A DNA stretch of 64,000 nt from a virus (IMGVR_UViG_3300029305_004897:4046-68045), one strand, 5' to 3'; shown: positions 16,960-20,990, numbered from the stretch's first letter. Numbers and translations are program-made. The notes: a model not told the origin generated them from the sequence alone.

Positions 16960-18295
16960 TAACTCTGGTCCTCAATAAACCTGCTCAAATCGGGAAACAA
17001 CCAGAGATGGTCAATCCCGAGGGTAAGACTTGAATGTAAAAAAATATATGGCAATAACATAAAGAAAAGATGTGATCTTTATAGAAGATTTAACTGGCAA
17101 GAAATTTGGACAATGGGAAGTTTTATATTATGTGATAGATAAAACAAAATCCCGTGGTGCCAGATGGTACTGTAGGTGTAGCTGCGGAACCGAGCGATCT
17201 GTTTTAGGTAAATACCTAAAAAATGGATCGAGCACTTCATGCGGTTGTACTCGAAAAGTAGATTGGGTTGGTAGAAGAATTGGCAGGCTCACAATACTAT
17301 CTGTTTACGAAGATGACGGTGATACATATTGTATGTGTAAATGTGATTGCGGCAATGAAATTGCAATAAAAAAGCGTGGCATACTCGGAAGGCATTCATG
17401 TGGATGTAGACTCTATGGGGCTACAGGAAACGAGCATACAATAGATTTGACAGGGCAAAAATTTGGACGATTATTCGTAAAAAGTATGAAGTACACAAAA
17501 GGTAGTTTAAGTGAGTGTGAGTGTTTATGTGATTGTGGAAACTTGATTGTTGTACCAGCATGTAGACTTACCTCTGGGAACACAACTTCATGTGGGTGCA
17601 TCCATTCTCCGTCACTAATTGGGAACACATACGGCAGATTGACTGTTGTTGAAGAATCTGGCAGAAAAGGTACCCAAAAATTATGGAAATGTATCTGTGA
17701 ATGTGGCAATGAAACATATTTAACATCGCATATATTGGCAAGTGGCCATACCCATTCATGCGGATGTTTGAGAAGTGAAAAGGTCAGTCGTAGAGAAGTT
17801 ATGATTTCAGAGATTTTATCATCCATGGGTATTAAGTATATATCGGAAAAGAGTTTTGATGACTTAAAAGGAGTTGGGAATAAATCTTTGAGATTTGACT
17901 TTTTTGTTCCATCTATAAACACTGTCATCGAATATGATGGGATGCAGCATTTTAAACCAATACAATACTTTGGTGGAGAAACACATTATAATCGACAAAA
18001 AGAAAATGATTTAATAAAAGATTCATATTGCGATATGAATGGAATTCGCCTGTTGAGACTGCCATATACTCTTACAGACGATCAAATTTATGAGCGGATA
18101 ATCGCTCTTTTTTAATTTACATTCAAGAATCCCGTAACGACCACAGCTATATGAGTAATCATATGGCGTACGCAGGTAAACTATGCATAACGTATAGTGA
18201 ATGGTATGGTCTGCTCTGCAAATATAATCCAATATGAAATTGCAGAGGCAGGCAGAAATGACCTGCCCCCTCTTTTTAGAGGAGTAACAAAAAGG
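16960..18295 (+). mobile_element. Group I intron 1 (IA-like) with homing endonuclease, 1336 nt
   Basis: P1: exon GAGGAU with IGS GUCCUC 16968-73 (U.G at the splice site). P3 ACCUGC 16979-84 / GCAGGU 18172-77. P7 GACCA 18139-43 / UGGUC 18207-11 with a P7.1 hairpin. A perfect 12-bp stem 17029-40 / 18116-27 brackets the ORF. Ends in G; splicing gives NED|TFKSTY in frame. Confidence 0.93.
17072..18115 (+). CDS. Intron-encoded putative homing endonuclease (Cys-rich repeats plus Vsr/DUF559-like nuclease)
   Basis: Four repeats of DLTGxKFGRLxV...CxCxCG...SCGC, then LRFDFFVP...VIEYDGMQH...NDLIKD...GIRLLRLPY; AT-rich; sits in the P6 loop; GTG start. Confidence 0.8.
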   Translation: MIFIEDLTGKKFGQWEVLYYVIDKTKSRGARWYCRCSCGTERSVLGKYLKNGSSTSCGCTRKVDWVGRRIGRLTILSVYEDDGDTYCMCKCDCGNEIAIKKRGILGRHSCGCRLYGATGNEHTIDLTGQKFGRLFVKSMKYTKGSLSECECLCDCGNLIVVPACRLTSGNTTSCGCIHSPSLIGNTYGRLTVVEESGRKGTQKLWKCICECGNETYLTSHILASGHTHSCGCLRSEKVSRREVMISEILSSMGIKYISEKSFDDLKGVGNKSLRFDFFVPSINTVIEYDGMQHFKPIQYFGGETHYNRQKENDLIKDSYCDMNGIRLLRLPYTLTDDQIYERIIALF

Positions 18296-18715
18296 ACTTT
18301 TAAGTCAACTTACCAGATTATTAAGGAAATTTCAGGAGTCTGGAAAGATCTTACCGACGTATCTCAAGCAAACATTCTGAACTTGCTGGCTGGCAAGAGA
18401 AACGCAAACGCAGTATCAAGTTTGATCGAGAATTTTGATATGGCTGAGGCTGCTCTCAACGCTGCGAACGATGCTGCCGGTTCTGCTATGACGGAACATG
18501 CCAAGTGGCTTGATTCTATCGAAGGGAAAATCAATCAGTTCAAGGCCAGTTTTGAAGCGCTTTCTTCCAGTGTTATTAGTTCTGATTTTATCAAGCATCT
18601 GGTTGATGGTGCAACATCTCTTATCTCTCTGCTTGATGCAATCACGCAGAAAATTGGTCCTCTGCCCGGGCTTTTAATGGGCATTACATCTTTACTTAAT
18701 GTATCTGGCTTCGGT
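18296..18715 (+). CDS. Tape measure protein, exon 2 of 3
   Basis: Exactly 140 codons (TFKSTYQIIKEISGVW...AGKRNAN...WLDSIEGKINQFKA...NVSGFG), continuing the TMP core. Confidence 0.92.
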
Positions 18716-19042
18716 AGGCATCCATCGACTTGCCTTTCAAATATGCCGAAGTATACCCTGATGGTGACATGGAACGAGCTTGCAGCGTAATCGTGCTGCT
18801 GGCAAGAGGGTATTGGAAAAACGTCTTAAACTGCATCCCGGTTCACAGATCCGGGTCGGGAACGAAAGAATCCGCAGCCAAGCTCTCAGTGCAAACTGCA
18901 GAGAAGGTTCAGAGACTATAATAGGCGTACGGTTGACCCACGATACGGGAATCAATCGTGAAGGGATAGTCCAGTCAAATCGATATTGCTTGTGCAAATC
19001 GAAAAATCTGTAAACGGTTGGCCGCCGTTGGTCAAAAAAGGC

Positions 19043-19071
19043 TTGACAAATAACCCGAACAGATGTACAAT
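19043..19071 (+). promoter_or_regulatory. SigmaA-type promoter inside intron 2
   Basis: TTGACA-17 nt-TACAAT upstream of the GGAGGT RBS of the SLOG gene. Confidence 0.75.
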
Positions 19072-19100
19072 ATATTCAGAACAACTGTTTGGAGGTAGCG

Positions 19101-19562
19101 ATGTACGTATATATTACCGGATCTCCGGAGATCACTTCCCTGCCGGAGACTGTCACAAAACGGTTTGATCAGATCGTCGATAAAGGTTACGATATTCTGG
19201 TTGGAGACAATAAAGGATTTGATTCCACTATCCAGAAGTATTTTGCCATGCGTAAATATCGTCGGGTGACTGTCTATGTGAGTGGGCAGCATACGAGATA
19301 TAACGAGGGAGCATTTAGTGAAGCTCACATTCCTGGTTTGCCGGGAGATTCTGCTGTAGAGTTTGCTCGGTTGAAGAATGACGCCATGATTGCGGATGCG
19401 GACTGTGCGGTTGCTGTATGGAACGGGTATAGTCGTGCTGTGCGGCAGGACCTGGAGGAGCTTTTGGATTGTGGGAAGAAAGTTTTGCTTTACTGGAATG
19501 GGAAGATGGTTTTGGTACGGGATGACGGGTCGTTTTCTATTGACAATTTTCTTTATTGGTGA
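19101..19562 (+). CDS. SLOG-superfamily (YspA/YpsA-like) protein, intron cargo
   Basis: 153 aa; MYVYITGSPEI, DILVGDNKGFD, KNDAMIADADCAVAVWNGYSRAV match the Rossmannoid SLOG pattern (GSR...GdaxGxD...D...WDGxSxGT). Confidence 0.65.
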   Translation: MYVYITGSPEITSLPETVTKRFDQIVDKGYDILVGDNKGFDSTIQKYFAMRKYRRVTVYVSGQHTRYNEGAFSEAHIPGLPGDSAVEFARLKNDAMIADADCAVAVWNGYSRAVRQDLEELLDCGKKVLLYWNGKMVLVRDDGSFSIDNFLYW

Positions 19563-19568
19563 TATAAT
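19540..19568 (+). promoter_or_regulatory. Perfect sigmaA consensus promoter for the toxin gene
   Basis: TTGACA-17 nt-TATAAT with an extended -10 TG, embedded in the end of the SLOG gene. Confidence 0.8.
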
Positions 19569-19590
19569 GGAGAAAATTGGAGGTGGAGTT

Positions 19591-20115
19591 GTGGCAAATT
19601 TACCTGGGCAGGAATATATTGATATTGGATGTTGGTTGAAAAGTAAATATCTATATCATATCAAGGCATCTTATAATAGAACAAAACGCTTACAAGTTCT
19701 TCGTGGGCAGGTATGGTACTGTGATTTCGGATATAACATTGGAACAGAGAAGAATAAGAAACGTCCAGTTCTTATTATATCCAGTAATAAGATAAACACA
19801 AGCGAAAAAGTGGTAGTTCTTCCAATTACGGATGCTAAGAATAAATTGAACAGCAATCATTTGCCCGCTCAAAATTCGTGGTATTTATTATATTCGAACA
19901 CCCAGGATCCTAATAATATGACTCACCCTCATCGTTCCATACCCGGCAATAATACACCGTACGCCTTTTTGATAAAAGACTCGCTGGTTCAATGCGAAGA
20001 AATACGATGTGTTAGTAAAGCAAGATTGGATGATGCCCAAGGATGCGTAGGCGTTTTATCAGCAATAGATATGAATAATATTGAGAATAAAATGCGAAAT
20101 ACATTTTGCTTATAA
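19591..20115 (+). CDS. MazF/PemK-fold endoribonuclease toxin, intron cargo
   Basis: 174 aa from GTG 19591 after GGAGGT; RGQVWYCDFGYNIGTEKNKKRPVLIIS, VVVLPIT and SLVQCEEIRCVSKARL are hallmark PemK/MazF motifs. Confidence 0.85.
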   Translation: MANLPGQEYIDIGCWLKSKYLYHIKASYNRTKRLQVLRGQVWYCDFGYNIGTEKNKKRPVLIISSNKINTSEKVVVLPITDAKNKLNSNHLPAQNSWYLLYSNTQDPNNMTHPHRSIPGNNTPYAFLIKDSLVQCEEIRCVSKARLDDAQGCVGVLSAIDMNNIENKMRNTFCL

Positions 20116-20120
20116 AACTC

Positions 20121-20149
20121 TTGACATACCTCTTTTATTGTGTTATAAT
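20121..20149 (+). promoter_or_regulatory. Perfect sigmaA consensus promoter downstream of the toxin
   Basis: TTGACA-17 nt-TATAAT with an extended -10 TG. Confidence 0.8.
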
Positions 20150-20155
20150 AAATGC

Positions 20156-20272
20156 ATAACATGATTAAGTCCCACAAATTACAGTGGGTACCTTATATAC
20201 TTTGTAACGAAGCCGTATGACCGAAAGGTATAGCTTCTGGAGCACACCGATTTAATTGCGGTGTGTTTTCCT
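20156..20272 (+). ncRNA. Candidate small RNA (pseudoknot, GAAA hairpin, terminator)
   Basis: Stem CCCAC 20171-75 / GTGGG 20184-88; loop TTACA can pair with TGTAA 20203-07; hairpin GAAGC...ACC-GAAA-GGT...GCTTC; terminator GCACACCG/CGGTGTGT plus T-rich tail. Confidence 0.55.
20242..20272 (+). terminator. Intrinsic terminator inside intron 2
   Basis: 8-bp stem GCACACCG/CGGTGTGT followed by TTTCCTT. Confidence 0.6.
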
Positions 20273-20288
20273 TATTAGGAGGTTCCGT

Positions 20289-20948
20289 ATGAACAAGAGA
20301 CCTGATGCCAGCAGTGCATTGAAATTCCTAACCATTTTATCCGGAATATCATCTGTTATATTATTGCTTGTAGCCTTTTATGTAAGTGTAGAAGATGAAT
20401 ATCTTGCTGGAACCGTTTGGGGAATATTTGCGGGATCTTTGGTAGCTTTTGCCGGTATGTTTGTTGTCACTGGGTTCCATAATGTTTTACTGGATATACG
20501 GGATCAGAAATATGAACATACTACTTTGCTTAGATCTATTCGAGATGCTGTCGATGGCGGTAAGGCAGCCGCAGAAGAAGCTATGGCAGAAGCTGAACGC
20601 CTGGATAGATGGAAAACTAAATGGCATAGAAGAGTTGATAAGTCTGTTGGTGAGGGCGGTATAACTGAAGATTTTGGCACATATATGCATAATCGCATAG
20701 ATTCGCGTTTCGATATTCCAAATAATGAAGATGAATGGTATTCTGGGTTGTTATCTGCATTTTCTGCAGCACTATCTAATGCAAAATCTTCTGACTGCGA
20801 ATACAAAAGCGAACTGGAAGCTTGGAAGGAAAATTATTTGAAGAAAATTGATGCTTCCCTTTCGGCTGGATCCATTACTTTAGACAAGGCAGAATCGCTA
20901 AGAGCAAAAGTACGTTCTTATACAAAAATCCCTGAGAGCCAGAAATGA
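20289..20948 (+). CDS. Membrane protein with two N-terminal TM helices, intron cargo
   Basis: 219 aa from ATG 20289 after AGGAGG; two hydrophobic stretches (FLTILSGISSVILLLVAFYV; GTVWGIFAGSLVAFAGMFVVTGF) then a soluble helical domain. Confidence 0.7.
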   Translation: MNKRPDASSALKFLTILSGISSVILLLVAFYVSVEDEYLAGTVWGIFAGSLVAFAGMFVVTGFHNVLLDIRDQKYEHTTLLRSIRDAVDGGKAAAEEAMAEAERLDRWKTKWHRRVDKSVGEGGITEDFGTYMHNRIDSRFDIPNNEDEWYSGLLSAFSAALSNAKSSDCEYKSELEAWKENYLKKIDASLSAGSITLDKAESLRAKVRSYTKIPESQK

Positions 20949-20990
20949 CTCTCTTTTTCTTTGGCCTGACCAGCCAAGTAATGATGACTG

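Follow-up and report, generated by a model that had tools for sequence, protein, structure and literature searches.

The window, by which we mean the entire 64,000-nucleotide stretch of viral DNA analyzed here, contains a toxin gene of the MazF/PemK family which has no protein antitoxin and is tied to a structured small RNA, encoded in single copy directly downstream and predicted to be transcribed from a promoter of its own. This association is strongly supported by comparing the sequences of many loci. We consider the chances slightly better than even that the small RNA acts as a type III-like antitoxin of a genuine MazF, single-copy, placed downstream and independently promoted. This reading is based on the obligatory linkage of both genes across distant hosts, the lack of a protein partner and the active-looking toxin, furthermore on the dedicated strong promoter of the RNA and its many invariant unpaired bases, and finally on the co-divergence of the two genes and on the occurrence of orphan RNAs while no orphan toxins were seen. 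The chances appear evenly balanced for the more far-reaching view that the pair represents a new family of RNA antitoxins, in which a genuine MazF/PemK toxin would be neutralized by a two-domain downstream RNA, present in single copy with its own promoter and not requiring any repeat processing, and that the pair is carried as cargo in an insertion, probably a group I intron, within the tape-measure gene of a phage.

An Enlarged MazF/PemK Toxin without a Protein Partner

The toxin gene is located on the plus strand at positions 19591–20115 and codes for a PemK/MazF-family endoribonuclease of 174 amino acids (Pfam PemK_toxin, E = 1.2e-18), in agreement with the assignment made in the sequence-only reading that preceded this analysis. 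Its most plausible start is the GTG at 19591, which is preceded by a GGAGG motif at a distance of 7 nt, and the frame ends with the TAA stop codon at 20113–20115; an alternative in-frame ATG at 19567 falls on the −10 box of the promoter. This promoter (TTGACA, 17 nt spacer, TATAAT, with TG before the −10 box) occupies positions 19540–19568 of the plus strand. The promoter scan returned exactly two perfect 12/12 matches to a sigma-70-type promoter, both with the TG before the −10 box, namely the one of the toxin gene and a second one at 20121–20149, and thus recovered both perfect promoters that had been pointed out before.

The protein is about 60 residues longer than the type II MazF/PemK enzymes of roughly 115 residues and has an N-terminal helical extension (about amino acids 7–32) with an invariant Trp15 and an internal insertion of about 30 amino acids (about amino acids 86–116). 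Two residues, R58 within an RP motif and T80, do not vary among 24 toxin homologues, and in the alignment they fall on the RP and IT motifs of Gram-positive MazF/PemK chains with known structures; going by B. subtilis MazF, we take them to be the catalytic arginine and threonine. A profile of the 24 homologues was compared with the sequences in the PDB and matched PemK/MoxT of B. cereus and B. anthracis, EndoA of B. subtilis and MazF of S. aureus with E values of about 1e-10, and the PDB matches consisted of MazF or Kid only, with no ToxN-type chain among them. An AlphaFold2 model of the toxin (pLDDT 87.9) gave S. aureus and B. subtilis MazF as the best Foldseek matches, with TM scores of about 0.84 on the target. 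The toxin is a genuine PemK/MazF endoribonuclease homologue, and it looks active as judged from the invariance of the motif residues and their alignment with the solved MazF toxins.

By its Pfam match, its structural relatives and its RP and IT motifs, the toxin clearly resembles those of the type II systems MazEF/PemIK (Kis-Kid). Unlike these, it is not accompanied by an adjacent gene for MazE/PemI or by any other conserved protein gene. A MazE/PemI-type domain is absent from both flanking ORFs (19089–19562 and 20289–20948), so the earlier statement that no such antitoxin gene lies beside the toxin holds.

An exhaustive search with the toxin profile yielded 14 representatives (at 50% identity) with E values below 1e-30, indicating that the narrow toxin family is rare. 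The tail of this search contained 156 representatives with E values below 1e-10, several of which are MazF-like proteins of 150–190 residues that match from near the N-terminus. NCBIfam and PADLOC did not provide the toxin with a defence-system or specific family name, and PADLOC contains a model for none of the three proteins, the toxin and its two neighbours. No relative of the toxin was found in plasmid records, and those in phage records are distant, with 27–30% identity; phage records also contained no DNA match to the region. Viral contigs returned no toxin relative with a protein query and no copy of the RNA with a strict P2 pattern.

A Two-Domain RNA Backed by Covariation

The second promoter (TTGACA, 17 nt spacer, TATAAT, TG before the −10 box; plus strand, 20121–20149) begins at the sixth base past the stop codon of the toxin gene and precedes a structured RNA of about 115 nt, which covers positions from about 20156 to 20272 of the plus strand, its 5′ end being predicted from the promoter and its 3′ end from the terminator. 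There is no terminator between the toxin and RNA genes, and both occur only once in the 68-kb IMG/VR virus record. The 5′ domain of the RNA (20163–20191) consists of a conserved single-stranded segment, GAUUAAGU (20163–20170), the hairpin P1 (20171–20188) with the strands CCCAC (20171–20175) and GUGGG (20184–20188) and a loop ending in ACAG, and a following UAC; five of the seven P1 pairs are changed on both sides within the family. An AU-rich linker separates P1 from P2. The 3′ domain (20209–20237), which is also supported by covariation, is formed by the P2 stem GAAGC/GCUUC, which encloses an inner ACC-GAAA-GGU hairpin at 20220–20229, and by a conserved internal loop. It is followed by an intrinsic terminator at 20242–20272 with a U-tract behind a sequence that folds as a hairpin, six of whose eight pairs show compensatory changes; this terminator would also stop toxin transcripts reading through. 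All of these elements lie on the plus strand. GAUUAAG and ACAG are nearly invariant in the toxin-linked copies of the RNA, and 17 of 19 downstream sequences (the window counted) contain a near-consensus promoter with a 17-nt spacer before the RNA. The folding energy of the small RNA is modestly better than that of shuffled sequences (z = −2.36).

For the RNA, we constructed a covariance model, R1, and an alignment of 36 distinct copies; the copy in the window scores 111.7 bits with this model. Standard pairs are present in 97.9% of the cells across the family, compared to 37–43% after displacing the partners by one to three columns, and 17 of the 29 pairs show changes on both sides, while none of 500 shuffles reached any of these measures. 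Compensatory support was found in every helix, i.e., P1, P1a, P2, the inner hairpin, and the terminator, P1a being an optional inserted hairpin which the copy in the window does not have. Pairing is complete (100%) in helices 3 and 4, three of whose pairs show compensatory changes. The fold of the small RNA is backed by covariation, and the covariance analysis downstream of homologous toxins that had been suggested beforehand thus revealed a conserved structure.

The structure proposed from the window sequence survived for the most part: the CCCAC/GTGGG hairpin, the GAAA hairpin, and the terminator are supported by compensatory changes across the 36 homologues, whereas the H-type pseudoknot is not. 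In the window, TTACA (20179–20183) is able to pair with TGTAA (20203–20207). Across the family, only 40.5% of the cells are paired in this register, a value reached by 481 of 500 shuffles; shifting the register by three raises it to an ambiguous 67.5%. The TTACA/TGTAA pseudoknot is, as far as the alignment tells, peculiar to the window and not conserved in the family.

Two further candidate features of the RNA were rejected. A small peptide encoded within it was dismissed, as several family members lack the ATG in UAUGAUUAAG, which, where present, mostly opens a frame of 6 codons. A likeness to 16S rRNA was noticed for GAUUAAGUCCCAC (20163–20175), which resembles 16S positions 1079–1090, and for AGCCGUAU (20211–20218), which resembles helix 45, and is treated as chance because the local alignment scores do not exceed those of shuffled sequences.

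Linkage of the Two Genes in Other Genomes

With each species represented by one genome, a toxin-first scan blind to the RNA yielded 19 loci across the Bacillota, coding for proteins of 50–60% identity. The hosts belong to the Lachnospiraceae, Oscillospiraceae, Eubacterium, Ruminiclostridium, Desulfosporosinus, Brevibacillus, and others. The RNA directly follows the toxin gene in all 18 loci that extend past the stop codon, the nineteenth ending at a contig edge, and no toxin without the RNA was seen among the loci readable beyond this point. What had been proposed from a single locus, an RNA in single copy, downstream of the toxin and with its own promoter, is strongly supported by the comparative data. 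Clustering of all ORFs of at least 60 residues from 20 loci revealed the toxin as the sole shared protein family; in particular, the SLOG-like and membrane proteins encoded in the window have no homologues beside the toxin in other loci, and no overlapping or antisense ORF was found at a conserved position across the loci. The 400 nt upstream of the toxin gene are also unrelated between the loci, except for near-identical ones, and the homologous toxin genes have their own promoters and ribosome-binding sites within this otherwise unrelated DNA. Because neighbours and upstream DNA differ between the loci, we define the conserved unit as promoter, toxin, promoter, RNA, and terminator. The distances between the toxins correlate with those between the RNAs (Mantel r = 0.585, reached by 8 of 5000 permutations), although any two neighbouring genes that move as one would be expected to stay linked and to diverge in parallel.

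The toxin-RNA element is rare. Under strict filters, 2 of 151 genomes of Lachnospiraceae species matched the RNA, a sample too sparse for co-occurrence statistics. A further match of 35 bits (G001:C8) was discarded as a terminator look-alike rather than a copy of the RNA.

A similar layout was observed in the Latilactobacillus phage TMW 1.1365 P2 (OQ240256.1, L152:1084-1702), which codes for an N-extended PemK protein of 159 amino acids with 27% identity to the toxin of the window. A promoter overlaps the stop codon of this gene and is followed by a strongly structured three-hairpin RNA of about 115 nt (z = −4.57) with a terminator, and the pair adjoins an integrase gene. R1 does not match this RNA, and we regard the phage locus as the same architecture with an unrelated RNA family, which speaks in favour of the RNA-antitoxin reading.

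Some of the loci exhibit additional structured elements nearby. Six of them (L006, L012, L013, L015, L017, and L147) contain another conserved hairpin together with a T-run (GGCAGGA..GTTCC) about 60–110 nt past the terminator of the RNA, which is missing in the window and may be part of a downstream leader. A type I toxin RNA of the BsrG family (71 bits) is located at L146:499-794 on the minus strand near the toxin-RNA cassette of Brevibacillus, and the sequence L149:1965-2004, whose score of 33.4 bits with the abiF RNA motif is just short of the cut-off of 37, precedes an Abi_2 gene beside an orphan copy of the RNA. Both sites look like defence or toxin-antitoxin islands.

Copies of the RNA without the Toxin

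A pattern scan of metagenomes that started from the RNA retrieved 120 loci. The toxin gene is present just upstream in 66 of them (17 of these are cut by contig ends), 8 are too short to judge, and 46 lack the toxin despite at least 750 nt of upstream sequence. These 46 loci represent a few near-identical sequences from a single human-gut clade and occur in three contexts. In the first, a complete UPF0175/DUF3368 (PIN) type II pair is followed by a promoterless RNA, which may be kept there simply as a terminator. In the second, a truncated UPF0175 ORF precedes a promoter and additional hairpins, which are combined with a variant RNA whose P1 loop is altered, and in the third a promoter-bearing RNA lies beside unrelated genes, for example an MFS transporter gene, a regulator-like ORF, or a transposase-like ORF. 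The ACAG closing the P1 loop, which is so strongly conserved in the toxin-linked RNAs, has disappeared from the lineage of orphan variants, a difference that speaks for the antitoxin reading. Both kinds of copy, toxin-linked (L013) and variant orphan, occur in R. torques ATCC 27756.

In the clade of Dorea, R. torques, and Blautia (L012:4589-5966, L020, L147), the toxin-RNA cassette is located immediately upstream of metK. The same site is alternatively occupied by the UPF0175/DUF3368 PIN pair with the RNA or by the truncated UPF0175 ORF with the variant RNA. Because at least the L012 and L020 types both lie just upstream of metK, this site looks like one recombination hot spot for toxin cassettes.

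A pattern for P1 only detected the 5′ domain of the RNA (GAUUAAGUCCCAC, loop, ACAGUGGGUAC) in two phage contigs of IMG/VR (L154:6017-6100 and L155:8051-8119, the latter on the minus strand), joined to a different second hairpin with the loop UUAGAU. No toxin gene was found within the 10–12 kb fetched around these two domains. Because the 5′ domain is found alone in these contigs, its role may not depend on the toxin. One copy borders an IS200/IS605 element with TnpA and TnpB, lying immediately beyond its left end. The other is equipped with a promoter and is followed downstream by a GIY-YIG gene and a skipping-rope RNA (70 bits).

The persistence of the RNA behind other cassettes at the metK-upstream site and the solitary 5′ domains in phages would fit an RNA that is unrelated to neutralization, either a hitch-hiking terminator or insulator or an sRNA aimed at host or phage targets. 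The N-terminal extension with its conserved helix and invariant Trp, or else an unlinked gene or factor, could then neutralize the toxin instead, or the protein would not be toxic at all. We consider this explanation unlikely, though still to be reckoned with, since a plain terminator needs neither two further covarying domains nor a consensus promoter of its own, and since the RNA is retained across distant taxa in all 18 toxin-first loci that extend beyond the stop codon, while all other flanks differ. If the RNA is an antitoxin, on the other hand, the observed asymmetry, with RNAs occurring without the toxin and the reverse not seen, is as expected.

Relation to Known Toxin-Antitoxin Systems

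Known type III loci possess a single promoter, followed by an upstream tandem array of repeats of 34–45 nt, a terminator, and then the toxin gene, and their toxins, which belong to the ToxN, CptN, or TenpN families, cut the repeat array into units (PMC5086642). The system of the window shares with the type III systems ToxIN/AbiQ, CptIN, and TenpIN (PMC5086642, PMC3401426) an endoribonuclease with a Kid/MazF core and an adjacent small structured RNA, which is here proposed to neutralize it. Mobility and an association with phages and defence are further common traits, and orphan or mimic RNAs are known for ToxI, just as the RNA family described here has toxin-less copies. In contrast to the type III loci, the order of the genes is reversed, with a single RNA of about 115 nt downstream of the toxin gene, and no tandem repeat was found near the toxin gene of the window. 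Moreover, there are two promoters instead of one, the terminator follows the RNA, the toxin belongs to PemK/MazF and not to ToxN, CptN, or TenpN at the sequence level, and the RNA family shows no conserved pseudoknot in the TTACA/TGTAA register, the register shifted by three being ambiguous. Because gene order, repeats, promoters, terminator, and toxin family all differ, the system is not a member of ToxIN, CptIN, or TenpIN, and it may at best work like a type III pair.

Structured RNAs beside toxin or Abi genes of Bacillota are also represented by the pemK RNA motif, ToxI, the abiF RNA, and BsrG/SR4, and a comparison with Rfam entries such as ToxI, CptI, and pemK-associated motifs had been suggested before. 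Searching Rfam 15, we obtained no match for the RNA of the window at E values up to 10 and none for it at the gathering score when the whole window was searched; seven homologous loci were likewise without a match at E values up to 5–10. A full-text search of the literature for RNA antitoxins of MazF/PemK returned known type III work only, and pemK is not mentioned in the main text of a 2017 paper on 224 RNA motifs. The RNA family reported here, together with its covariance model, adds an uncatalogued structured RNA.

Proposed Mode of Action and Remaining Alternatives

As an RNA-controlled system, the cassette would form a two-part toxin-antitoxin unit of about 730 bases, whose enlarged MazF/PemK endoribonuclease would cleave RNA of the cell or of the phage. 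The small RNA would be made in two ways, from its own strong promoter and as the 3′ end of every toxin transcript, the latter because no terminator separates the two genes. It would bind directly to the toxin and block the RNA groove, and the exposed, nearly invariant ACA(G) of the P1 loop may serve as a pseudo-substrate, a role suggested by analogy. If synthesis of the RNA stopped or the RNA was degraded, e.g., upon infection or loss of the element, the toxin would be set free, provided that it is more stable than its presumably labile antitoxin.

The missing intergenic terminator is also compatible with an RNA that controls the expression of the toxin, acting either as a 3′-UTR or processing element that affects mRNA stability or in trans as a block of translation, similar to type I systems. 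The toxin mRNAs should then end in the RNA, and the extra promoter would yield an excess of the free form. As to a type I mechanism, the RNA is encoded on the same strand as the toxin, and its predicted pairing with toxin initiation regions was no better for the cognate (−21.9 kcal/mol) than for non-cognate ones (−21.6 kcal/mol) in what is a crude test, which lends an antisense mechanism no support. The many invariant unpaired bases, too, suggest contacts with a protein or tertiary contacts rather than a variable antisense target, and we regard control of toxin expression as a rather improbable function.

The same linkage and co-divergence data would apply if the RNA were a cofactor, guide, or sensor needed by the nuclease, making the pair an RNP effector instead of a toxin and its inhibitor, and the enlarged toxin offers extra surfaces. 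This seems quite improbable, since the toxin-less RNA copies are easier to understand as harmless antitoxins than as orphan cofactors, and enzymes of the MazF family are not known to need a cofactor. That the RNA is a leader or riboswitch of the downstream gene, as might be suggested by the ribosome-binding site and ORF directly following the terminator in the window and in L008, is close to refuted because each lineage has different genes downstream, often encoded on the opposite strand, and no riboswitch of Rfam matched.

To our knowledge, MazF, which is among the most studied toxins, has always been described with a protein antitoxin. If a genuine MazF were controlled by an RNA antitoxin, type II and type III systems would be connected through a single toxin family, and many MazF genes regarded as "orphans" would have a partner after all. 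It would also mean that searches for type III systems which require upstream repeats miss a whole architecture. On the more far-reaching view of a new family of RNA antitoxins, the bacterial and phage copies of the RNA, or of its 5′ domain, that lack the toxin would represent anti-addiction or counter-defence decoys.

The Cassette within a Phage Structural Gene

The two immediate neighbours of the cassette are outside of the conserved module. Upstream, an ORF on the plus strand at 19089–19562 codes for a protein of 157 amino acids which had been described as SLOG-like in the sequence-only reading and for which no match was found in Pfam, NCBIfam, or PADLOC. The downstream gene (plus strand, 20289–20948), which is preceded by a ribosome-binding site at 20277–20282, codes for a membrane protein of 219 amino acids.

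The toxin-RNA cassette sits between two pieces of a tape-measure gene, and this placement in a phage structural gene is relevant to the ways in which phages transport and regulate cassettes of this kind. The end of the PhageMin_Tail domain is at 16962, an open tape-measure frame extends from 18197 to 18790, and another one opens near 20985 and runs into an ORF of 1448 residues. The gene appears to be divided into three pieces by two insertions at 16963–18196 and 18716–20990. The second insertion contains the SLOG-like gene, the toxin gene, the RNA, and the membrane protein gene, and a weak match to Intron_gpI (15.8 bits, E = 0.84) is located at its start, at 18774–18992. The first insertion contains an ORF of 347 amino acids with Cys repeats and a weakly DUF2726-like C-terminus (E = 0.0032).
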